The position numbers and the translations under genes are program-made. Positions 1 through 8,409 of a stretch of DNA of 64,000 bases are shown piece by piece. Position 1 is the stretch's first letter. Each line of letters opens with the position of its first letter. The stretch lies in contig JAZNDG010000067.1 in NCBI GenBank assembly GCA_045587985.1, positions 22,126 to 86,125 on the forward strand. Direction: 5' to 3'. Below the pieces are notes generated by a model that saw nothing but the letters and a program-made list of their open reading frames with translations, did not search any database and was not told the origin of the DNA. Source of the DNA: Eubacteriales bacterium. Lineage in GTDB: Bacteria > Bacillota > Clostridia > Oscillospirales > CAG-272.

Positions 1-248
1 AGCGTGTAGATCATATCCTTGACAAAGCATTTGTCCGAGCGAAGCCCGTGGACGGCGACCTGTTTGCAGTACCATTTCTTATAGCGGCATTTGACCGCCA
101 CCGTCACCTTCACAAGCTCGCCGTCGTTCTTCGTCAGATAAGAATAAAAGCGGGTCATCCCGTCTTGCTTTTCGTATTTCTGCTTATCCATTCGCTCGAT
201 CTTTTTGAGGATGTACTTCGGGATCGGCTTAATCTTTTCGAAGGTCAT
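1..248 (-). CDS. Hypothetical conjugative-element protein, N-terminal part only (gene runs off the left edge)
   Basis: The minus strand from the ATG at 248 reads MTFEKIKPIPKYILKKIERMDKQKYEKQDGMTRFYSYLTKNDGELVKVTVAVKCRYKKWYCKQVAVHGLRSDKCFVKDMIYT with no stop before position 1. An ATGA stop/start overlap links it to the upstream gene (245-248). It is absent from the ORF track because it is truncated. It may be PcfJ-like, given its position after a PcfK-like gene, but this is unverified. Confidence 0.5.
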   Translation of the reverse strand, partial: MTFEKIKPIPKYILKKIERMDKQKYEKQDGMTRFYSYLTKNDGELVKVTVAVKCRYKKWYCKQVAVHGLRSDKCFVKDMIYT

Positions 249-1294
249 ACCATCACCCAATCCTTTCCGAAGAAGCGCGTCAGCACCTCGTCAAATTCGC
301 CGCCCTTTTGGGGCTCGTCAAAGACCTCACCGGTCGCGGTATTGATTACCATTGTAGGTTCCTCACTTTCTTGTCTTAATAGCACTTTTTCGTCCTCACT
401 CTCAATCAGATAGACGGGAGCGAGCGCGCAGATCTTTTCGAGATAGATATCTTTTCTATGGAAGGGAAAGCCAATCATCGGGATTTTGCCAAGCGGCCCT
501 CCGTCGCGTTGTACGACAACTAAATCCACCGCTTCGCCAACACGAGCCGCGTTCTTGCCAAGCACCTCATAGAAGTCACCAACGTGCATGACGACGATTG
601 CCTCCGGTTCCTCGTCTGCATAGCCCCGATACCGAGTGATGATAGGCGGGATGGGTCTCGGCTCTTCCTCGTCGATATCTCCGTCATAGTCCTCGCTGTT
701 TTCTTCTTCTACAACGTCGGCAGCTTCATCCTCGTCTTCATCATCCTCCAAATCCGAGCCCCAATGCCGACGTCCCCAATCCCCTTCGGTGCCTGGCATC
801 GGTACAAGTCTGTGGGGATCGTCCTCTTCCTCGGGCTCATCCTCGGCGGTTGTGGTCGGGATCGTTGCCGCAGGCTCTCCAAGCGAGTCAAAGAGCGAGA
901 TCTGTCCGCCCTCTTTCTTCTTGACAGGAGTAGGCGGGGGAGTGATGGTCTTTGGCGCGCTCTTCTTCACGGCGGGCTTGTATTCGGTACCGTCTTCATT
1001 GTAGAGCTTGCCTATGATATCGTCCTCTTCAAAGTAGTGGATAGCCCAGCCAAATACCGTATCGCTTTTGATACACGCGAAATGGGCGCCTTTTTCGGCT
1101 TGTTTACGGGCTTCGTCCGAGGCAAACGCCATAAAGCCGGCAAGATCCTTTTTATTAAGTAGCCGTTTGCCGTCCTTTTCGATATACACGCCGTTATTGA
1201 TCTTCTCGGCAAGCACCTCGCTTGCGTTCTCCTCAAGGTATGCCTTGATCGCTTCCTGCTCAGCGCCCTTTGCTTCAAGTTTTATCTCTCTCAT
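245..1294 (-). CDS. Fusion protein: PcfK-like/AcrIIA9-like N-terminal domain, acidic linker, MutS-domain-I-like C-terminal domain
   Basis: 349 aa. The N-terminus (IKAYLEENA, VFGWAIHYFEEDDI, ISLFD) resembles the PcfK-like/Cas9-inhibitor AcrIIA9 family. The middle is an acidic low-complexity stretch (DLEDDEDEDEAADVVEEENSEDYDGDIDEEE). The C-terminus, VVMHVGDFYEVLGKNAARVGEAVDLVVVQRDGGPLGKIPMIGFPFHRKDIYLEKI, parallels E. coli MutS residues ~27-90 ([23 protein letters not shown]). An RBS-like GGGAGAAAGGA lies upstream. Confidence 0.7.
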   Translation of the reverse strand: MREIKLEAKGAEQEAIKAYLEENASEVLAEKINNGVYIEKDGKRLLNKKDLAGFMAFASDEARKQAEKGAHFACIKSDTVFGWAIHYFEEDDIIGKLYNEDGTEYKPAVKKSAPKTITPPPTPVKKKEGGQISLFDSLGEPAATIPTTTAEDEPEEEDDPHRLVPMPGTEGDWGRRHWGSDLEDDEDEDEAADVVEEENSEDYDGDIDEEEPRPIPPIITRYRGYADEEPEAIVVMHVGDFYEVLGKNAARVGEAVDLVVVQRDGGPLGKIPMIGFPFHRKDIYLEKICALAPVYLIESEDEKVLLRQESEEPTMVINTATGEVFDEPQKGGEFDEVLTRFFGKDWVMV

Positions 1295-1335
1295 TATCCT
1301 TTCTCCCTTCTTGTCTTATAAATGAAAAAAGCCCC

Positions 1336-1530
1336 TCAAAAGGGCACCTCTCGCCATATCCCGGCGCGGTATTCAGATTTCTTAATGGGAACGATATGTA
1401 CGGGACGGGAATTGGCTTCGTATCGCTTGAGCGACCTTACTGCCTCATTTGCCTGTTGATGCGTATAGGTTTTGAAGCGATAATTTCCTTTGCTATTGTC
1501 ATAGCAGATTTTATAGCCGTATTTGTTCAT
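1336..1530 (-). CDS. Small hypothetical protein (64 aa)
   Basis: The ORF track gives 1336-1587. I chose the internal start MNKYGYKICYDNSKGNYRF at 1530 because it forms a 4-nt overlap with the stop of the upstream gene (1527). No recognisable domain. Confidence 0.45.
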   Translation of the reverse strand: MNKYGYKICYDNSKGNYRFKTYTHQQANEAVRSLKRYEANSRPVHIVPIKKSEYRAGIWREVPF

Positions 1531-2072
1531 ACGCCTACCCCGTATACCCGTTTTGCCATATAGGGCAGCCCCGAGTAGATGTTGCATCCCATAATCGTCT
1601 GATGCAGGGCTCTATCGCAGGCGAAGTAGTTCTTGTCTGCCAACTCTGTGCCTTTCTTTGTCAGGCGTCGAAGCTCGTAGTAATCACGCCCATCGTGATG
1701 ATAGCCGGTGACATACAGATGACCGTTTTCGTCATAGATGCAGATGCCGTCAAGGTGACGGATGCAGGTGTAGAAGTCATCGACCGAGCGAATGAATTTG
1801 CCGCCCTCGGCAGGTCCATCCCAACGACCGCAGGTGCCTGTCAGCAGATACGGCTCGTCCCGCTCAAGCAACCATTCAAGGTCTGCGCGGAAAGACGACC
1901 AATCTGCTTCGTGGCACGCCCGGATTTCATCATAGACAAGCTCTGTGGGAACGTCCTCAAGGCTTTCCCATTCCTGTTCCTCGGCCTGATCTTCGTAGAG
2001 ATAGAACCGAGTCTCGTCCATAAGGTCATAATCGTGCGTATTATCGTAGAATACGGTTTTCGTCTTTTTCAT
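1527..2072 (-). CDS. Hypothetical island protein (181 aa)
   Basis: Intact ORF co-oriented with and packed against its neighbours. AAGGAG-type RBS (aaggagcttgccATG). No domain recognised by eye. Confidence 0.65.
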   Translation of the reverse strand: MKKTKTVFYDNTHDYDLMDETRFYLYEDQAEEQEWESLEDVPTELVYDEIRACHEADWSSFRADLEWLLERDEPYLLTGTCGRWDGPAEGGKFIRSVDDFYTCIRHLDGICIYDENGHLYVTGYHHDGRDYYELRRLTKKGTELADKNYFACDRALHQTIMGCNIYSGLPYMAKRVYGVGV

Positions 2073-2086
2073 GGCAAGCTCCTTTC

Positions 2087-2344
2087 TTAGTCATCCAACT
2101 GATCGCGAAGCAAGTCCAATACCTCGTCTTCAATGTCAAGATCATCAATCTCTTCGTCGATGATATCTTCTACAACACTCTGAATGAAGGGAGTGATATC
2201 TACCTTTTCAATCTTGCTGCGCAGGCGTGTATCAATGATGCCGCCAATGTCGATAGAGCCGAGGGCATCATCAATAGCGTCCTCAAAATCATAATTTTCA
2301 ATACACTCTCGGATGGACTCTGTGATGCGTCTTTTAATGTTCAT
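2087..2344 (-). CDS. Very acidic mini-protein (85 aa), candidate DNA mimic/anti-defence factor
   Basis: By my count, 27 of 85 residues are D/E and 9 are K/R. The C-terminus reads VVEDIIDEEIDDLDIEDEVLDLLRDQLDD. It lies in the same operon as ArdA. Confidence 0.6.
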   Translation of the reverse strand: MNIKRRITESIRECIENYDFEDAIDDALGSIDIGGIIDTRLRSKIEKVDITPFIQSVVEDIIDEEIDDLDIEDEVLDLLRDQLDD

Positions 2345-2374
2345 AGTATAGTCTCCTTTACATTATATGGTTTT

Positions 2375-2665
2375 TTAGAATGCTTCCGGATCGTCTGCTT
2401 CATCGCAGTAGTCCTCAAGGTCATCCAGAAGGACGAGAGGAGTGGGAGTATCAAGCGTACCCATACAGTAGTCATAATCGTAGAAGTTTGCAGTACGCCG
2501 ATTGATGGCTTCGAGGATGTGAATGGCGAGATAGAGGTTTTCGTCCTTGATCTTTTCAATGGCAAACTCTTTCAAGGTCTCGTAGGTCGTAATGGTATCG
2601 ACCTCGGCGAGCAGTTGGCTGACGGCATCCTCAAACACCATCTTTTTCAATTCAAGTTTCGTCAT
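2375..2665 (-). CDS. Small hypothetical protein with acidic C-terminal tail (96 aa)
   Basis: ORF with the tail LLDDLEDYCDEADDPEAF. A 4-nt overlap links it to the upstream gene (2662-2665). Confidence 0.6.
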   Translation of the reverse strand: MTKLELKKMVFEDAVSQLLAEVDTITTYETLKEFAIEKIKDENLYLAIHILEAINRRTANFYDYDYCMGTLDTPTPLVLLDDLEDYCDEADDPEAF

Positions 2666-2910
2666 TTTTTGTATTCCTCCATATATCTTTTGAATTGGGT
2701 TTCGTTTTCAAGGATCTGCATGATCTCGGGCATAATCGCTTCTTTCGTCTTTCCGACACACCCGAGAATCAGCAGATTGGTGTTGCTCCCGAACAATCTT
2801 CGGAAGGCATAATCAAGGATCATTTCTATCTCGTGATCCCGATGCTCGCTTGTGAAGTTGATAGCGAACAAAGCGGTAAGGATGGCTTGTACCTCTTTTG
2901 TGTTTTTCAT
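2662..2910 (-). CDS. Small hypothetical protein (82 aa)
   Basis: Intact ORF in the operon. Its start is 6 nt after the ArdA stop. No domain recognised. Confidence 0.55.
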   Translation of the reverse strand: MKNTKEVQAILTALFAINFTSEHRDHEIEMILDYAFRRLFGSNTNLLILGCVGKTKEAIMPEIMQILENETQFKRYMEEYKK

Positions 2911-2915
2911 ATCGG

Positions 2916-3458
2916 TTACCTCACAATCTCGATGATGCCACCGCTATATTCTTCGCAGTAGTCCGAGCCGATGTATCTGCCGTAGGCCTCAAAATCAAAG
3001 AAGTATTCAAGGCTTTCGTCAATCGTGTTTCCGCAGACGTTGAACATCTCACGACCGTAATCCTCCCAGCTAAAGTTGCGATACAAATTGATATCGTCCC
3101 CCCACCGGGGACCGTGATCGTCGACGAGCTGCATAAAATCGTCGAAATCGCGCACTTCAAGGAATGCTTCAAGAAGGTCAAACTGATAAGTATCATCAAG
3201 CACGTCGGAAAGCTTTAATACCTCAAACAATCTTTCGGGGTTCATGTAATCCCAATGTGCTGCCGAGGAATCAATACCGTCAATGTCCTGAATAAACAAT
3301 TCCTCGTCGATACCGTCAAGCTCAAATCCTTCGCTCTCAAGCTCATTGAGAATGTCTTCCCAACACTCATAATCAGCAAGCTGTAGCCACTTGCTCCCAA
3401 GGGCCCTTTCGTTGCATTCGTTGTAAGAGCCCCATGATCCTATGACTACCGATATCAT
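2916..3458 (-). CDS. ardA: ArdA-like anti-restriction protein
   Basis: 180 aa and strongly acidic. The N-terminus IGSWGSYNECNERALGSKWLQL and the C-terminus FDFEAYGRYIGSDYCEEYSGGIIEI match the ArdA pattern (LGxYNEG...W and EAYGRDL...GGxxxx) from memory. Confidence 0.7.
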   Translation of the reverse strand: MISVVIGSWGSYNECNERALGSKWLQLADYECWEDILNELESEGFELDGIDEELFIQDIDGIDSSAAHWDYMNPERLFEVLKLSDVLDDTYQFDLLEAFLEVRDFDDFMQLVDDHGPRWGDDINLYRNFSWEDYGREMFNVCGNTIDESLEYFFDFEAYGRYIGSDYCEEYSGGIIEIVR

Positions 3459-3790
3459 TAGTCATCACCTCCGGCAAGATCCCGAACGGTTGCACCCTCT
3501 TTCACATACAGATCTCGTTCCAGAGGGAACTTGCATCCCCAAAGGTCAACCATCGTGTTCTGGATTTCCGATAACAGGACATAGCCCCATTCCCATTCAA
3601 GGATGTGGCAGTATCCAAACAAGAGCCAATCTCCGTCCTCTTGCTGTTCTGCTTCTGTGATCAGCCAAGTACCTGCCCCGTAGGGGTTGAAATACTTGAC
3701 AAGTACCTCTGCATCCTTACCCTGACTCTCCTTTGAGTAAAGAGGGCAGAAAAGTGCCTTTTTCTCAATTTCTGCATTCCAAAGTTCCAT
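3458..3790 (-). CDS. DUF2958 domain protein
   Basis: 110 aa. The motif series LYSKESQGKDAEVLVKYFNPYGAGTWLITEAE...FGYCHILEWEWGYVLLSEI...PLERDLY matches the DUF2958 family pattern seen on plasmids and ICEs. Confidence 0.7.
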   Translation of the reverse strand: MELWNAEIEKKALFCPLYSKESQGKDAEVLVKYFNPYGAGTWLITEAEQQEDGDWLLFGYCHILEWEWGYVLLSEIQNTMVDLWGCKFPLERDLYVKEGATVRDLAGGDD

Positions 3791-3806
3791 TTTTGTTTCT
3801 CCTTTT

Positions 3807-4028
3807 TTAATCTGTGTAAAGTTTGACTCTAAAGTACCGATTTGCGTTGATCATTGTGTGGCTGCCGAAGTAATGCTGATTATCTTCCATACAAAGCTTA
3901 ATCAACTGCTCTTCCGTAATGCGTCCATAAGCATCTTCCCGGAGCCTTCCGGAATAGCCTATACTCGCGTGTCCTTTCTCCACTTGGAGATATTCAAAGA
4001 CAGCCCTTTGCGAATGAGACATTAACAC
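3807..4028 (-). CDS. Small hypothetical protein (73 aa)
   Basis: An ORF with a GTG start 8 nt after AGGAGG. That start immediately follows the TAA of the restored upstream reading frame (TAAGTG). Confidence 0.5.
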   Translation of the reverse strand: MLMSHSQRAVFEYLQVEKGHASIGYSGRLREDAYGRITEEQLIKLCMEDNQHYFGSHTMINANRYFRVKLYTD

Positions 4029-4263
4029 TTAACTTACCTCCTTAAAATCTTTTATTCTTAACTTCTCATATTCACATCCATACTCGAAGTAAAGTCCTTT
4101 TTCATCCGAACGAAGATCGTAGGTTACCACAGTGATTTTCCCACGGTTCGTCAGGGCGAGAGTAATCTCGCCCCTTTTTCATACTGAGGGATATAATATT
4201 GAAAACGATGAAGGCTTCTCCATCGTAGATTTCAAGCTCGTGAAGGTATTTGGTTTGTTCCAT
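4029..4263 (-). pseudogene. Small island gene interrupted by a +1 frameshift in an A5G4 homopolymer run
   Basis: From the ATG at 4263 (RBS AAAGGAG) the frame reads MEQTKYLHELEIYDGEAFIVFNIISLSMKK, then drifts to a stop at 4102. Removing 1 nt in the minus-strand run AAAAAGGGG (plus 4171-4179) gives GEITLALTNRGKITVVTYDLRSDEKGLYFEYGCEYEKLRIKDFKEVS. That frame ends at TAA 4029-4031, directly abutting the next gene start. The total of 235 nt equals 78 codons plus 1. Confidence 0.6.
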
Positions 4264-4277
4264 TTTGAGTTCTCCTT

Positions 4278-4577
4278 TCACTCTGCGTATTTGAACCAAA
4301 GATTGTAGTTCATCTCGATTTCGCGCTTTTCATATCCGGAGTTTTCCGTTTCGATGTCGATCTCACGGATCTCGTAGTAGGAACCTGCGAATTCATCCTG
4401 TCTGTTCAGGACCGAGTGACAGTATTTAACGGCACCCGTGAAAACTCTGATGTACGGCTTGCCTGCCTTGCTGATGGCAGGGATCAAAAGATCTTCATCG
4501 GTTACATAACCGACACCGGTTGTTTTGAAGTTCTCATGTCTACCAATCCTCGTTACGCTGAATACAACCTTTTTCAT
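4278..4577 (-). CDS. Hypothetical protein (99 aa), first gene of the ardA-containing operon
   Basis: Intact ORF with AAGGAG upstream, preceded by a ~400-bp non-coding region. Confidence 0.6.
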   Translation of the reverse strand: MKKVVFSVTRIGRHENFKTTGVGYVTDEDLLIPAISKAGKPYIRVFTGAVKYCHSVLNRQDEFAGSYYEIREIDIETENSGYEKREIEMNYNLWFKYAE

Positions 4578-4606
4578 TTTTTCTTAACTCCTTTTTCTTT
4601 GTTTTT

Positions 4607-4869
4607 GTTTTTTCGCCTTTCGGCACCCCCGCGAGGTGTAGCATGGTCCGGTAATCCCTTGCCTTTTTCCTGTCGCGTTGGTAAATATCAATGGTGTTAC
4701 TTTCTTTCAAATCTCGATAAGGTCAATTGTCTGCTTTCGGATAAAAGAAAAAGAGCCGGGTGGATACCCGACTCTATTTCTGGGATTATTTTATGTTCTC
4801 GGCTGAGAATTGACTCCATTGATATTTACGAGGACTATGCTACAACCGACCACCGAAAGGCGCAAAAAC
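4607..4869. repeat. Nested inverted repeats forming a long imperfect palindrome around a terminator hairpin
   Basis: Outer pair: GTTTTTTCGCCTTTCGG (4607-4623) against CCGAAAGGCGCAAAAAC (4853-4869), 16/17 complementary. Middle pair: GTAAATATCAATGG (4681-4694) against CCATTGATATTTAC (4816-4829), 14/14. Inner pair: GTCAATT (4722-4728) against AATTGAC (4808-4814). Centre: the hairpin at 4753-4774. Confidence 0.85.
4741..4774 (-). terminator. Intrinsic terminator downstream of the RT gene
   Basis: The minus strand reads GAGTCGGGT-ATCC-ACCCGGCTC (9-bp stem with one G-U pair) followed by TTTTTCTTTTAT. It is the first terminator after the RT stop, ~215 nt downstream. Confidence 0.7.
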
Positions 4870-4885
4870 CCTCCGTGTCGCGCTC
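4832..4885. repeat. Direct repeat copy A flanking the RT cassette
   Basis: The core CGCAAAAACCCTCCGTGTCGCGCTC (4861-4885) matches 6660-6683 with 1 indel and 1 mismatch. Weaker similarity extends to 4832. Overall, 41 of 54 aligned positions are identical by hand alignment. Confidence 0.8.
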
Positions 4886-4988
4886 ATATTTAGTTGTTGT
4901 TTACCTCCTCAAAATCCTTTTTATTCTACACTGCGATAATAAAACAAGCGACCTTTGGTGCATAAACATCACTTGAAAGCAAGATGCT

Positions 4989-6533
4989 TTATAAGCCTCT
5001 TTTCTCCTTTTCTTCATTATAACTATCAATTTTTGTTGAAATAAAAACATCAATATCTCGAGCGATAGAGCTAATGGGCTTTAAGAATGGTATGTTGTTA
5101 TCCAAATTCAGTTGGTAGAAAGCGCGATAACTATCTTTTTGAGCCGCCTTTTTAGCCTCGAGAGGAATTAAACAATCGGTTCCGCTTTTATCGTAAGTAA
5201 GAAGGAAGTGATAATTTTGCAACCACTCACTTTCTTTTGGTTCATCAAAGCAGGCTTGATATTCCTCTTTACTTATGACATTATCAATCAAGTAGTATGA
5301 AATGAGAATTTGATTTTTAGATCTCAATACTAGTTCTTTGTAATAAACAAACTCTGAATCAAATCCACATATCTTCATTGCATAATAAAAATAAAGTTGC
5401 TCTTCCTGTTTTTCGGTGAACAATGATGACTTGAATCTTGTCTTAATGAAATCCTTGAATTTTGCGTTATCGAATCCATCAATAGTTCTTATTTTGTGTA
5501 AAGAATAAAGAATGGTTTCTGGCATAAGCTTATAGATGTAACATATATGGTTAAAATCGGACTCCGACAAAACATATATTTGCGTATTCATTTCGTGGAA
5601 ATAATATGTTTTGAAAAAGTTTGCTAGGAATATCCGTTTGTACTTCAATTCATGAATTTGACTCAGTCTATAAACGAGTTGCGTAAAAATAGGCGAATGT
5701 ATTTTCTTCCCTTCCAAAATTTGGTGTCCTTGTTTGGCTGCGGCTTCTACCGCCTGATTAATAATTGCTTTCCAAAGCTTTTCAAGGTTGTTGTTTTGGG
5801 TATATTCTTCGAAATCGAATATTTGTGTTTTTTCGTAATTTGTTTCGAGCCCATATTCATCAAGAATTTTGGCAAAAACTTTTTTTATTTTCTCAACATC
5901 GGAATTGTTGCAAAAGAAGTAGAAGTCGTCCGAAAAATATTCATAGTGACAATCTATTCCTAGAGCATGCAGTTCCGAATCCAAATGTACTTCCAATTTG
6001 CTTAATATTAATTCGCCCAAATAAAGAGAAAGATATGACCCTAACAACAGGCCGTTAGTTCTACCATTATTCAAAGAACCTACTCGTTGTTCCAACTTGC
6101 GAGGATCACTGCTAGCATAGCCTAAATCGTGAGTATAAATTCTTCCATAAAAACTCTTTATATCCAAAACCAAGAGTTTATCATATTTGGTGAGATTGAA
6201 TACATCTCGCTTTATAGAATCATAGTAGCTAAAGGCAGAAAATTCTCCTATATCTAGGTTTGGCGCAATTCTCTTTTTGCTACCCATGCGATCAATCGCA
6301 TAGAAATTGGTCTCAGATTCAAAATGCTTTATGGCGTGATAGAAATTAAGTATATTGGGAAAGGATATAGTGCGTTGTGATTCTTCTGTTTTGAAAACTT
6401 TAAATTTAACAGGAGCCGTCCAAGTCAAACTGCCAAAAGGCAAATTATCGACCGCATCAAATCTAACGTTCCGTAGATTAAAAAAGTGGCGAATAGGATT
6501 CTTGAAATTATAAAGATAGTCAAATCGTCTCAT
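4989..6533 (-). CDS. Stand-alone reverse transcriptase, UG/Abi type (AbiA-like), candidate defence RT
   Basis: 514 aa with the RT motifs in the expected order: RTISFPNILNFYHAI; LLVLDIKSFYGRIYTH (motif A Asp); NGLLLGSYLSLYLGELIL (motif B); YEYFSDDFYFF (motif C, an FSDD variant of YxDD); GLETNYEKTQIF (motif D/E). Residues ~250-514 are helix-rich and unassigned, and contain RLSQIH (R-x4-H). RBS AGGAG lies 5 nt before the ATG. The gene is very AT-rich compared with its flanks. Confidence 0.85.
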   Translation of the reverse strand: MRRFDYLYNFKNPIRHFFNLRNVRFDAVDNLPFGSLTWTAPVKFKVFKTEESQRTISFPNILNFYHAIKHFESETNFYAIDRMGSKKRIAPNLDIGEFSAFSYYDSIKRDVFNLTKYDKLLVLDIKSFYGRIYTHDLGYASSDPRKLEQRVGSLNNGRTNGLLLGSYLSLYLGELILSKLEVHLDSELHALGIDCHYEYFSDDFYFFCNNSDVEKIKKVFAKILDEYGLETNYEKTQIFDFEEYTQNNNLEKLWKAIINQAVEAAAKQGHQILEGKKIHSPIFTQLVYRLSQIHELKYKRIFLANFFKTYYFHEMNTQIYVLSESDFNHICYIYKLMPETILYSLHKIRTIDGFDNAKFKDFIKTRFKSSLFTEKQEEQLYFYYAMKICGFDSEFVYYKELVLRSKNQILISYYLIDNVISKEEYQACFDEPKESEWLQNYHFLLTYDKSGTDCLIPLEAKKAAQKDSYRAFYQLNLDNNIPFLKPISSIARDIDVFISTKIDSYNEEKEKRGL

Positions 6534-6565
6534 AGTTGCTCCTGTAATTTATAGCATTCTCATTT

Positions 6566-6594
6566 ATTTTATCATATATTGCAGATCAAATCAA
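6566..6594 (-). promoter_or_regulatory. Sigma-70-type promoter of the RT gene
   Basis: Minus strand: TTGATT (6594-6589), a 17-nt spacer, then TAAAAT (6571-6566), ~30 nt upstream of the RT start codon. Confidence 0.55.
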
Positions 6595-6630
6595 GACAGC
6601 ACTTCGCACGAATGCCGCATTTCGACAAAG

Positions 6631-6683
6631 CGGCTATGCCCCAATCGGCCTGTGCAAGACGCAAAAACCTCCGTGTCGTGCTC
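6631..6683. repeat. Direct repeat copy B flanking the RT cassette
   Basis: The core CGCAAAAACCTCCGTGTCGTGCTC (6660-6683), plus weaker similarity back to 6631, is in the same orientation as copy A. Confidence 0.8.
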
Positions 6684-6729
6684 CTTTTACCCTTTTCTCT
6701 CTATCCCTCCAATCACTGTGCTTATAAAG

Positions 6730-6765
6730 CAAAAAACGGAACCACTTTCGTAGTTCCGTTTTTTG
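6730..6765 (-). terminator. Intrinsic (bidirectional-shaped) terminator after tRNA-Glu
   Basis: AACGGAAC (6735-6742) pairs with GTTCCGTT (6753-6760) as a perfect 8-bp stem, with an A-run on one side and a T-run on the other. Confidence 0.7.
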
Positions 6766-6799
6766 TTAGATCTTTCCAACGGTTCAGTTGGTGACCTCT

Positions 6800-6874
6800 T
6801 GGTGACCCGTACGGGAATCGAACCCATGTTTTCGCCGTGAAAGGGCGATGTCTTAGCCGCTTGACCAACGGGCC
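6800..6874 (-). tRNA. tRNA-Glu (anticodon UUC)
   Basis: The reverse complement is GGCCCGTTGGTCAAGCGGCTAAGACATCGCCCTTTCACGGCGAAAACATGGGTTCGATTCCCGTACGGGTCACCA. The acceptor stem is GGCCCGT/ACGGGTC. The anticodon stem is TCGCC/GGCGA with loop CTTTCAC. GTTCGATTC forms the T-loop, and the CCA end is encoded. Confidence 0.95.
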
Positions 6875-6889
6875 ATTGTTAACAGAGGT

Positions 6890-6918
6890 ATTATAGCATA
6901 GGTTTTTGAAAAAAGCAA
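6890..6918 (-). promoter_or_regulatory. Promoter of tRNA-Glu
   Basis: Minus strand: TTGCTT (6918-6913), 17 nt, TATAAT (6895-6890), ~15 nt upstream of the tRNA 5' end. Confidence 0.65.
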
Positions 6919-6943
6919 GCCCTTTTTGAAAAAAAGAATTTGC

Positions 6944-6980
6944 GAAAAAAAGCAGCCTCGTGCGAGGCTGCTTTTCTTCT
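6944..6980 (-). terminator. Intrinsic terminator of the permease gene
   Basis: AGCAGCCTC (6951-6959) pairs with GAGGCTGCT (6964-6972). On the minus strand the hairpin is followed by TTTTTTTCG. Confidence 0.75.
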
Positions 6981-6981
6981 T

Positions 6982-8409
6982 TTATTCCTCCTCGGCGGCA
7001 GCTGCCTTTACCGAGGGCTTCTTGCGGTAATAGATGTAAGCACCGATGCCCATCACGACAGCAAACACGATGAGATACCACACGTTTGCCATTTGGTGCT
7101 TGATGATGCTGGCCGCCACGATCACGGCAACGCCCGCGATCGAGAGGCAGGGGAGCACAAAGCGCTTGAAGGGATGCAGGCCCTTCTCCTTGATCATCAT
7201 AATGACAAGGATCGGGACGTACATCGGGTAGATGGTGATGATCGGGAGCTCGGAGGAGTCAAAGCCGTATTTCGAGATCGTGCCGAAATCGAAGAGCCCT
7301 GCTCCGATCAGGACGAAATAGACAAACCAGACAGCGCATGTGAGCAGCGCAAAGGCGGCCGAGTTGTGCGGCATATTGGTCACCTTGTCGATCTGCTTAA
7401 AGGTGTTGGGGGCAATGCCCTCATCTCTTGCCGAGAGCGAGTAGATGCCGCGGCAGCAGCCGACCATCAGGCCGTTGAGAGTGCCAAGGCAGGACACCAC
7501 AATAAAGGCGCCGATGAGCTTTGAAACCACAGGGCCGAAATAGTCAAAGGCCTTGGTCGTTCCGTTTGCGGTGATGTCGGTAATGCCGGCAAGGCCGAGA
7601 ATACCGGTGTTATAGAGCGTATAGGCCGTTACCACGATAAAGGTGCCAAGGCAGAGCGCGATGGGCAGGTTTTTCTTGGAGTTCTTGACCTCCGAGTTGA
7701 TCGAGGTCGCCACGATCCAGCCCTCATACGCAAAGATGGTGCCGCAGATAGCGGGGAAAAGACCGGTGGCAACCGTGGGGTCATCGGTAATCGTGCCGAC
7801 CGCCTCAACATCCAGATTTGCGCCGAGCTTGCCGTTGAAAAGACCGATGATCAGGCCGATAATACCGATAAACACAATGGGCACGAGCTTGACGGCGGTC
7901 GAGGACACCTGGAACTTACCGGCAAGCCGCGGGGCAATGGTGTTAAGGAAATAGATGAGCACGAGATAGAAGAGCGCAAGCGTAATGGTCTCGGGGCTGT
8001 TGAGCGTGCTCTTGATATTCATAGAGAGGGGAAGCTCCGTATATCCAACGAGCAAAAGGGTGTATCTTGCCGATACCCAGGCAAGGACCGATGTCATGGC
8101 GGGATAATAGACAAGCGACATAAACCAGCCGATAAAGAAGGCATAGGACTTGCCGCAGGTGGCCTCCGCATAGTCCACAATGCCGTTGACCTTCTCATAC
8201 TTGGTTGCCATCACACCAAAGGTCGTGGCGATGGCCACCATGATAAGGCCGGAAATGAGCCAGGCAAAGATGTTGTAGAATGCGTTGCCGTTGGCCGCCT
8301 TAAGCACATCCTCGGTCTTAAAGAAAATGCCCGAGCCAATGACGATCCCCACGACCATACAGGTGGCCGTGATCAGACCGTACCGCTTTTGAAGGGTTCC
8401 GTTTTCCAA
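6982..8409 (-). CDS. APC-family amino acid permease
   Basis: 475 aa and polytopic. The N-terminus GLITATCMVVGIVIGSGIFFKTEDV is typical of APC transporters. It uses a TTG start preceded by GGGAGGA. Confidence 0.8.
   Translation of the reverse strand: MENGTLQKRYGLITATCMVVGIVIGSGIFFKTEDVLKAANGNAFYNIFAWLISGLIMVAIATTFGVMATKYEKVNGIVDYAEATCGKSYAFFIGWFMSLVYYPAMTSVLAWVSARYTLLLVGYTELPLSMNIKSTLNSPETITLALFYLVLIYFLNTIAPRLAGKFQVSSTAVKLVPIVFIGIIGLIIGLFNGKLGANLDVEAVGTITDDPTVATGLFPAICGTIFAYEGWIVATSINSEVKNSKKNLPIALCLGTFIVVTAYTLYNTGILGLAGITDITANGTTKAFDYFGPVVSKLIGAFIVVSCLGTLNGLMVGCCRGIYSLSARDEGIAPNTFKQIDKVTNMPHNSAAFALLTCAVWFVYFVLIGAGLFDFGTISKYGFDSSELPIITIYPMYVPILVIMMIKEKGLHPFKRFVLPCLSIAGVAVIVAASIIKHQMANVWYLIVFAVVMGIGAYIYYRKKPSVKAAAAEEE

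Follow-up and report, generated by a model that had tools for sequence, protein, structure and literature searches.

A hairpin family upstream of anti-defence operons in gut Clostridia with the features of a single-stranded DNA promoter

Introduction

In a Eubacteriales bacterium (assembly GCA_045587985.1, contig JAZNDG010000067.1), an anti-defence operon that contains ardA is preceded by a cluster of nested inverted repeats, and the locus raises the question of what these repeats do. We analyzed a 64,000-nucleotide (nt) stretch of the contig, hereafter the window, in which the repeats lie at positions 4607 to 4869 and the operon is read from 4577 on the minus strand. An original prediction, made from the sequence, had proposed that the repeats fold into a promoter that works on single-stranded DNA (ssDNA), of the type known as Frpo, and had offered an oriT-type (origin-of-transfer) relaxase site, an invertible promoter segment (inverton) and a miniature inverted-repeat transposable element (MITE) as alternatives.

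Promoters of this kind allow anti-restriction, anti-CRISPR and anti-SOS genes to be expressed before incoming DNA is attacked. Those characterized so far come almost only from enterobacterial plasmids, and the literature that we searched contained no account of an ssDNA promoter in a Gram-positive integrative element. Here we report that covariation between the arms of the hairpin, a promoter on its distal arm, an insertion in its proximal arm and a terminator at its apex support the proposal. Judged from sequence comparison, it is probable, if well short of certain, that the hairpin is a self-contained ssDNA-promoter cassette for the operon behind it.

Results

The repeats fold into a hairpin that is stable far beyond chance

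The three inverted-repeat pairs of the original prediction have the positions and the complementarity given there: 4607-4623 with 4853-4869 (16/17), 4681-4694 with 4816-4829 (14/14), and 4722-4728 (GTCAATT) with 4808-4814 (AATTGAC; 7/7). It had missed a fourth pair, 4637-4649 with 4832-4844. The 14-mer is exact on both strands and extends to 22 nt at 86%, and the 7-nt pair is part of the minimum free energy (MFE) fold. When window 4595-4885 was folded as ssDNA, the plus strand reached -53.8 kcal/mol, against -30.0 +/- 3.9 kcal/mol for shuffled sequence (z = -6.05), and the minus strand reached -52.2 kcal/mol (z = -5.54). Not one of the 200 dinucleotide shuffles made per strand was as stable, on either strand. 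The fold stability of this segment is far beyond chance, and the imperfect hairpin of about 260 nt that had been proposed for either strand came through its shuffled-control test. Of the two strands, the plus strand, which serves as template for the operon, is the one predicted to fold and act. The parts of the hairpin are listed in Table 1; below, the arm next to the operon is called proximal and the other arm distal.

The hairpin occurs in many related loci and always abuts a gene start

The first gene of the operon encodes a protein of 99 amino acids (aa) with 95 relatives, around which 80 genome loci were taken. Of these, 73 reached far enough upstream, and 60 of the 73 had a hairpin of 225-325 nt that ended no more than 45 nt from the ATG. 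A blastn search with the window sequence hardly detected the related loci. An nhmmer profile built from alignment A2, which holds 32 diverse copies, recovered every locus as well as second copies within the same contigs, and matched window 4868..4579 at E = 5e-31. Across 209 related contigs there were 195 distinct near-full-length copies, with two or three copies in 33 contigs. An exact-pattern scan with part of the gene-proximal arm found at least 120 metagenome contigs; the same scan of 2.9 million viral contigs gave 0 matches. Rfam showed nothing relevant in the hairpin, whether the whole window was searched at gathering thresholds or 4300-7000 at E <= 10, and blastn of the region found no match in plasmid or phage collections. 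The hairpin belongs to a widespread, apparently undescribed family in gut Clostridia.

The first open reading frame (ORF) after a copy encodes a protein of 99 aa (119 copies), about 87 aa (39), about 207 aa (15) or about 78 aa (8), and these are four unrelated families. Since the unit shifts between operons, keeps its orientation and always abuts the ribosome-binding site, it is a regulatory cassette and not a MITE. Within the 64 kb of the window, the profile finds one copy, and no further match to the 14-mer core lies outside the two arms.

Several second copies precede the gene for the protein of about 207 aa (L024 4690-4975, L068 4487-4746, L067 3091-3351, L044 11293-11016, and L086/L087 upstream of 7705). 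This protein gave only sub-threshold helix-turn-helix (HTH) and sigma-region-4 hits, and a DUF4121 protein comes next. If it is a transcription factor, an early regulator would be launched from the same type of cassette.

Compensatory changes maintain the pairing of the arms

A 56-pair consensus, comprising five long-range helices and the terminator, was obtained from unbiased arm-against-arm alignments and counted on the 32 copies of A2. Paired cells amounted to 87.5%, compared with 74.1% when partners were shuffled and about 40% when partners were slid by 1-3 columns, the last control being inflated because the consensus came from the same sequences. Changes on both sides were seen in 36 of the 56 pairs (235 cells), and 0 of 500 shuffles reached the observed value on any of five measures. 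The test for compensatory changes in homologues that the original prediction had called for therefore came out in its favor. The TG / -10 helix (family helix 4) showed compensatory change in 8 of its 10 pairs, and the -35 helix (family helices 5-6) was 93% paired, with 8 of 13 pairs compensatory. A blind RNAalifold run on A2 independently recovered both the terminator and the long-range helix of the -35 region, and at some pairs of that helix 15 of the 32 sequences were compensatory. At the base helix, RNAalifold favored a local GCC-GAAA-GGC hairpin as an alternative. The proximal strand of this helix (4607..4623) holds a family-conserved palindrome, GCCGAAAGGC, which falls within the predicted initially transcribed region and 5' untranslated region (UTR). 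Taken across the family, these comparisons argue that the pairing of the hairpin is under selection despite the divergence of its sequence.

The distal arm carries an extended -10 promoter that is paired down to -12

The distal arm, read antisense to the genes, was compared in 84 non-redundant copies. Its -35 element is TTGACT (42 copies), TTTACT (14), TTGACA (10) or a close variant, so that TTGAC[TA] or TTTAC[TA] is found in 70 of the 84. A spacer of 16 nt (42 copies), 17 nt (32) or 18 nt (8) separates it from a TGnTAnnnT block, in which the bases T-15 (77/83), G-14 (83/83), T-12 (73/83), A-11 (82/82) and T-7 (54/83) are kept. In the family, the distal arm thus has the features of an extended -10 promoter for sigma-70/sigma-A, namely TG at -15/-14 and TAnnnT with A-11 and T-7. 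The -35 and -10 elements of the stem, 16-18 nt apart, are oriented so that the folded strand reads toward the genes; in the window copy they are weaker. The hexamers to which the original prediction had pointed (TTGACC, TTGACT and TG-n-TATTTA) are present in the window but are not the conserved elements, which lie at the distal-arm positions given in Table 1.

Pairing with the other arm follows these elements closely. It is found in 76-82 of 83 copies at -16 to -12, in 26 of 82 at A-11, in 62 of 82 at -10, in 15 of 82 at -9 and in 12 of 82 at -8, and family positions -9 to -3 are mostly unpaired. Since A-11 is invariant although mostly unpaired, its conservation on that strand concerns the base itself and not a role in pairing. 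A duplex that extends to -12 and leaves the non-template bases of the -10 element free is the fork-junction form best bound by sigma-70 holoenzyme, and it needs no supercoiling. If the operon's template strand forms the hairpin, the distal arm is the non-template and the proximal arm the template strand, so that polymerase would exit via the base of the hairpin into the operon, an arrangement that follows the logic of Frpo. The predicted start of transcription, read on the minus strand, lies near 4623.

An insertion in the proximal arm separates the promoter elements in duplex DNA

An extra 28-32 nt (mode 31) stands in the proximal arm in 75 of the 84 non-redundant copies. In the duplex form of the window, this insertion places the proximal TTGAYA about 47 nt from the TGn block. 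The counterpart of the -10 element in the proximal arm is degenerate, with A at position 2 in 27 and T at position 6 in 34 of 84 copies. Since the insertion separates the proximal -35 from the TG block, these data suggest that no promoter faces the operon in the duplex form. A generic sigma-70 scan in the gene sense had hits in 19 of 73 loci, which is below the shuffled rate of 0.35. In the antisense direction, 44 of 73 loci had any hit, compared with about 0.37 expected per locus, a modest enrichment, and these hits cluster at the distal arm, with 31 of them at 220-259 nt from the ATG.

The insertion is about three helical turns long and has an A-rich centre, and its sequence is not conserved. 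The length may be set by how a three-way junction sits on RNA polymerase, or by a protein site.

A terminator lies at the apex of the hairpin

The central terminator of the original prediction is real and is read on the minus strand. It has a 10-pair stem with 6 G-C pairs and the tail TTTTCTTTTA. In a crude scan of the family, in which 67 copies had a detectable stem, the T-run at the apex was gene-sense in 49 copies and antisense in 3. Judged by this orientation, the terminator should stop transcripts that arrive from upstream, which would come from a reverse transcriptase (RT) gene in the window and from cargo or host genes elsewhere, before they reach the operon. Mismatches in the terminator stem were of the G.U type on the gene-sense strand in 43 cases, compared with 8 of the A.C type, whereas non-Watson-Crick cells of the long arms were balanced (40 versus 43; Fisher p = 2e-5). 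The arms do not show the G.U bias of the terminator stem and are therefore not maintained as a gene-sense RNA helix. In addition, the terminator sits between the arms, so that one RNA could include both, as the long helix requires, only after a failure of termination.

A rolling-circle nuclease gene converges on the operon

A gene convergent with the operon, found 4.5-11 kb downstream of the hairpin in 26 hairpin-gene pairs, encodes an HUH rolling-circle nuclease that matches PF23343 and has the motifs HFHGL and YLMKY; exceptions to this geometry are few (L003, L189 and L190). It is the only DNA-processing gene seen in these elements. Rolling-circle plasmid initiators and the ICEBs1 relaxase nick the strand of their own mRNA sense. 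If the HUH nuclease does the same, by analogy, the displaced strand may be the operon's template strand, with the operon in its first few kb. In the leading region of F, the genes oriented toward oriT include ssb, psiB and the antirestriction gene. The hairpin operon, like these genes, likely points toward the origin of its element.

The window copy sits at the edge of a conserved module in a mobile element

Between 4577 and the edge of the window, every gene is on the minus strand: those for the 99-aa protein (4278-4577), a DUF2958 protein (3458-3790) and ArdA (2916-3458), one for a protein with a PcfK-like region and MutS domain I (245-1294), and small unannotated ORFs. Besides ardA, the operon has other genes of leading-region type. 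Because related loci continue with a PcfJ gene, the operon probably extends past window position 1. Proteins of the PcfK-like / MutS domain I type are also found at L049 9745-11007 and L137 2534-3520, and a PcfJ-like protein comes next in related loci. MutS domain I serves in mismatch recognition, and its presence behind a mismatched ssDNA hairpin is curious. The 99-aa protein, whose gene is the commonest one behind the hairpin, is predicted with high confidence (predicted local distance difference test score 93.6) to have an all-beta fold. A Foldseek search of the PDB at E <= 0.001 gave no match, and the protein falls into no family of Pfam, NCBIfam or PHROG. It is a candidate early-acting establishment or anti-defence factor.

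Metagenome contig L081, which encodes an identical 99-aa protein, is 97% identical to window 4885..3890 and carries entirely different genes beyond. Because this homology ends 16 nt outside the hairpin, the hairpin is the outermost conserved piece of the operon module. The DNA farther out is exchangeable cargo or belongs to the host, as illustrated by nusA/infB in L004 and by an integrase together with Fic and Schlafen-type genes in L049. In the window, this position is taken by a gene for a 514-aa RT (4989-6533, minus strand) of the defence-associated class UG31 (PADLOC E = 1.9e-84), with weaker matches to Drt6 and AbiK. The RT stretch has 33-37% G+C, compared with 42-53% in the operon and 50-63% in the flanking chromosome. 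The region just outside the hairpin looks like a cargo or defence hotspot. The RT slot holds TipAS, rhodanese, PD-(D/E)XK and deformylase genes in L081, and Fic and Schlafen/AlbA_2 ATPase genes in L049. A tRNA-Glu (TTC) gene at 6800-6874 (minus strand) marks the junction of the low-GC island with the 50-63% GC chromosome and is a likely site of the element's integration; at the tRNA-Glu end, the window shows no integrase.

The segment 4030-4058 (TTACCTCCTTAAAATCTTTTATTCTTAAC) resembles 4900-4930 (TTTACCTCCTCAAAATCCTTTTTATTCTACAC), and each is a ribosome-binding-site region on the minus strand. Segment 4900-4930, immediately beyond the hairpin, is followed by no ORF, and it is possibly what is left of an earlier gene start that the cassette or the RT cargo displaced.

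Table 1. Positions of the hairpin, its parts and associated features (window coordinates unless a contig is named)
Feature	Position	Strand	Evidence or detail
Whole imperfect hairpin, ~263 nt	4607..4869	+	Fold z = -6.05 / -5.54; profile match
Base helix, gene-proximal (template) arm	4607..4623	+	Pairs with 4853-4869, 17 nt, 16/17 (94%); family helix 3
Template side of internal loop (bubble) downstream of -10	4624..4636	+	Unpaired in MFE and centroid folds
Template arm of TG / -10 helix	4637..4649	+	Pairs with 4832-4844, 13 nt, 92%
31-nt insertion, gene-proximal arm only, between -35 helix and TG / -10 helix	4650..4680	+	
Template arm of -35 helix	4681..4702	+	Pairs with 4808-4829
Intrinsic terminator at hairpin apex	4742..4775	-	Stem 4775..4752, T-tract 4751..4742
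-35 element TTGATA, non-template (distal) arm	4819..4824	+	Family consensus TTGACT
Extended -10 TGcTACAAC (TG 4838-4839, hexamer TACAAC 4841-4846), 16-nt spacer	4838..4846	+	Family alignment
Non-template side of bubble, -8 to about +1 in window copy	4845..4852	+	Fold
Base helix, gene-distal (non-template) arm	4853..4869	+	Repeat pairing, ssDNA fold
Edge of conserved module	4870..4885	.	Homology to L081 starts at 4885, 16 nt outside hairpin
Shine-Dalgarno AAGGAG (4593..4588) and ATG (4577..4575) of first operon gene	4575..4593	-	
Operon served by hairpin	245..4577	-	Genes as given in the text
HUH genes	L088 18973-20019; L086 18936-20009; L137 5769-6851	- relative to operon	PF23343

Discussion

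A proposed promoter that would exist only in the folded single strand

The features of the hairpin suggest a mechanism in which its activity would depend on the state of the DNA. When the mobile element goes single-stranded, by conjugative transfer or by rolling-circle displacement, the operon's template strand (the plus strand of the window) would fold on itself. In this fold, a sigma-70/sigma-A promoter (TTGACx, 16-18 nt, TGnTAnnnT) would take its non-template strand from the distal arm and its template strand from the proximal arm. The stem would be duplex from the -35 element through -12, with A-11 usually mismatched and the next bases open, and would present polymerase with a pre-melted fork junction. 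Polymerase would leave through the base of the hairpin and transcribe the whole operon, beginning with the gene for the 99-aa protein and including ardA. Synthesis of the complementary strand would abolish the hairpin; the proximal arm would then offer no usable promoter, the apex terminator would block read-through, and the operon would be silent. The hairpin transcript may also prime synthesis of the complementary strand.

Several observations weigh against this reading. The proximal -35, TTGAC[TA] in 74 of 84 copies, is better conserved than the distal one and is followed after about 16 nt by an A-rich TAAAnn block, and 7 of 73 loci pass the generic promoter rule at the proximal arm. Judged from these sequences, the proximal arm may hold a weak duplex promoter toward the operon. 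The distal variants TTTAC[TA], which occur in 18 of 84 copies, produce a T.C mismatch at -33; the better-kept proximal -35 may reflect contacts of sigma region 4 with the template strand, or such a weak duplex promoter. The distal-arm promoter is itself intact in duplex DNA and points outward, where it could drive divergent cargo (L049, L081) or read across the junction of an excised circle. To our knowledge, a 30-nt branch of the template strand in mid-spacer has no precedent in a working promoter.

The window copy also weighs on this side. It has C at -7, its A-11 (4842) is paired, and its bubble opens only at -8 (4845-4852 versus 4624-4636). In most family members the 5' end of the distal arm supplies an anti-SD that pairs with the Shine-Dalgarno (SD) sequence, but the window copy has no such pairing, and the generic sigma-70 scan calls no promoter in it. 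It is a recognizable yet atypical, weaker-looking member of the family.

Further points concern the element and the strand. No oriT or nick site was found. A relaxase and a type IV secretion system were sought by comparing the HUH gene and the L137 proteins of 708, 691, 369 and 202 aa, encoded just upstream of it, with Pfam, NCBIfam, PHROGs and PDB sequences, and the only hit was PF23343 on the HUH gene. The four L137 proteins had no Pfam, PHROG or PDB sequence match, and the transfer or replication machinery of the elements is thus unannotated. A G.T mismatch test for the folding strand gave 53 versus 25 for the antisense strand with pairwise arms (p = 0.002) and 43 versus 40 with alignment-defined pairs. 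As this test was not robust, we infer the folding DNA strand from the strand of the promoter and not from mismatch statistics. The inflation of the slid-partner control also belongs here. In pLS20, whose repeat-rich regions are placed in a similar way, the transferred strand is reported to be the non-template strand, and an ssDNA promoter was rejected by the authors (PMC8708921).

Other functions for the hairpin

The folded strand might serve only as a single-strand origin (sso), at which recruited RNA polymerase synthesizes a short primer for the complementary strand and any expression of genes is a side effect. The ssos of Firmicutes are ssDNA hairpins of 150-300 nt with promoter-like stems, and the sole DNA-processing enzyme seen here is a rolling-circle nuclease. 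Frpo transcripts, moreover, prime DNA synthesis (bioRxiv 10.64898/2026.01.09.698686). An sso of the ssoA type, whose RS_B and CS-6 motifs were not part of the comparison, is nevertheless expected once per replicon, at a noncoding site near the double-strand origin, whereas two or three copies of the hairpin are present in 33 contigs, 4.5-11 kb from the Rep gene, and each copy stands 0-45 nt before a start codon, often with the SD in the stem. The predicted transcript would exit the hairpin base into the operon instead of ending in the loop, and for priming both the apex terminator and the promoter-breaking insertion would be superfluous. We consider a role as an sso alone unlikely; by analogy with F, the two roles may coexist. 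An ordinary duplex regulatory region, with an outward extended -10 promoter, a weak inward promoter and a terminator between them, would make the symmetry a by-product of a duplicated promoter or of a symmetric regulator. The distal promoter is complete in duplex DNA and is called by the generic scan in L083, genes upstream of the hairpin are often divergent, and the highly conserved proximal -35 has its A-rich block at the right distance. This explanation leaves unaccounted for the compensatory changes over an arm of about 100 nt at positions outside the promoter elements, for example those of spacer columns 106-111 with 343-348, as well as the stop of pairing at -12 with A-11 mismatched and the 28-32 nt insertion in one arm. 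The RT gene of the window is co-directional with the operon, so that an outward promoter would be antisense to it, and in several loci the flank beyond the hairpin is host DNA. We regard this explanation as decidedly unlikely.

Control at the RNA level appears improbable. It would have the distal arm and terminator form a small RNA that pairs its anti-SD with the 5' UTR, or would make the region a structured leader or attenuator, and it could draw on the SD complement with which the distal arm starts in most loci and on the gene-sense terminator that follows this arm. No conserved promoter was found upstream of the distal arm, however, where the flank is variable or host DNA from 16-70 nt away. 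The arms show none of the G.U bias of the terminator stem, the terminator lies between them, and there was no Rfam match. The three alternatives of the original prediction have the least to recommend them, and we consider it very improbable that any of them applies. What speaks for an inverton, a MITE or an oriT-type relaxase repeat alike is the location within a mobile element of long inverted repeats that carry promoter-like hexamers. Judged from the contig sequences, an inverton does not agree with the fixed orientation of the apex (49 versus 3 in the crude scan) or with an insertion that is always proximal, and in the window the neighbors are the RT gene and small ORFs, with no adjacent invertase. 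A MITE is contradicted by the single copy in the window and by copies elsewhere that are diverged, covary and always abut a gene start, and an oriT by the presence of several copies in one element, each at a distance of 4.5-11 kb from the HUH gene.

Comparison with known systems

The preferred reading, that of an ssDNA promoter, finds its closest likeness in the Frpo and ssi elements of F and ColIb-P9 (Masai & Arai 1997, Bates 1999 and Nasim 2004, as presented in PMC11541004 and PMC8708921). These are also long imperfect hairpins of about 260-310 nt in the template strand of downstream genes, with -35 and -10 elements rebuilt in the stem, and several copies precede anti-restriction or establishment operons whose genes point toward the origin. 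In our folds, the Frpo region upstream of ssb of F formed a hairpin of about 310 nt on the T-strand (z = -7.5). The present family differs in its Clostridia hosts, its TGn-type -10, its apex terminator, the 28-32 nt branch on its template arm and the SD that often lies in the stem. The nearby enzyme is an HUH Rep and not a MOBF/MOBP relaxase, and promoter activity is predicted here. With nhmmer --max at E <= 10, the profile had no hit on F plasmid 50-68 kb, which covers the Frpo regions, and blastn gave chance matches of <=16 nt or 73% identity. The part of the original prediction that concerned function thus holds, and the part that would make the hairpin a sequence relative of Frpo does not: sequence comparison indicates something that would work like an ssDNA promoter and is not a member of the Frpo/ssi sequence family.

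Promoters of the ssDNA type fall into several unrelated sequence classes (PMC12672017). The hairpins upstream of klcA and ardA in pESBL have no homology to Frpo and likewise rebuild -35 and -10 elements before leading-region operons (PMC12672017). No Frpo-similar sequence was found in an island of S. pneumoniae (Samuel et al. 2024, PMC11541004). The pESBL hairpins and the Frpo-like candidates of Samuel et al. belong to Gram-negative plasmids, whereas the present family has 195 copies, covariation, a terminator and an insertion.

Among Firmicutes, EGeRS1, a repeat-rich structured region of the pLS20-family Bacillus plasmids, also stands in several copies before establishment and anti-restriction operons. 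It lacks a constitutive duplex promoter and blocks read-through from upstream, both of which were measured (PMC8708921), and these two properties match those predicted here from the insertion and the apex terminator. In contrast to the present hairpin, EGeRS1 is 400-750 bp long, GC-rich and branched, and its authors found no promoter in the folded form (PMC8708921). The window copy is about 263 nt long and is not GC-rich, with 0.42 G+C around 4001-5000, and had no blastn match in the plasmid collection, in which the presence of a pLS20-family record was not checked. According to a study of Tn916, a terminator near the end of that element prevents host read-through (PLoS Genet 2024, PMC11658703). 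This is the insulating role proposed here for the apex terminator, except that the one in Tn916 is not embedded in a long promoter-bearing hairpin.

The sso elements ssoA, ssoT, ssoU and ssoW of rolling-circle plasmids, and sso1 of ICEBs1, are orientation-specific Firmicutes hairpins as well, with promoter-like stems that polymerase recognizes and with HUH initiators. They differ in making short primers, in being usually single and in not being fused to a ribosome-binding site and an operon.

Implications

It is an even chance, in our estimate, that these hairpins form a previously undescribed, self-insulated class of Firmicutes ssDNA promoters: a portable cassette of about 270 nt with an apex terminator, a fork-junction extended -10 and a branch that kills the promoter in duplex DNA. 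With it, integrated elements of gut Clostridia, mobilized through an HUH nuclease and machinery that is otherwise unannotated, would time when their anti-defence genes and a putative sigma-like HTH regulator are expressed. If this is true, the family would be the first well-defined Gram-positive counterpart of Frpo, and its design would explain both function on relaxed ssDNA and shut-off upon conversion to duplex. The invariance of G-14 and A-11, the stop of pairing at -12, the fixed insertion and the apex terminator amount to a falsifiable design rule. The family could also supply a compact, self-silencing promoter part for synthetic biology. For the gut Clostridia themselves, it would provide a search model for leading regions and new anti-defence genes, and the first genes behind the cassettes are candidate early-acting establishment factors.

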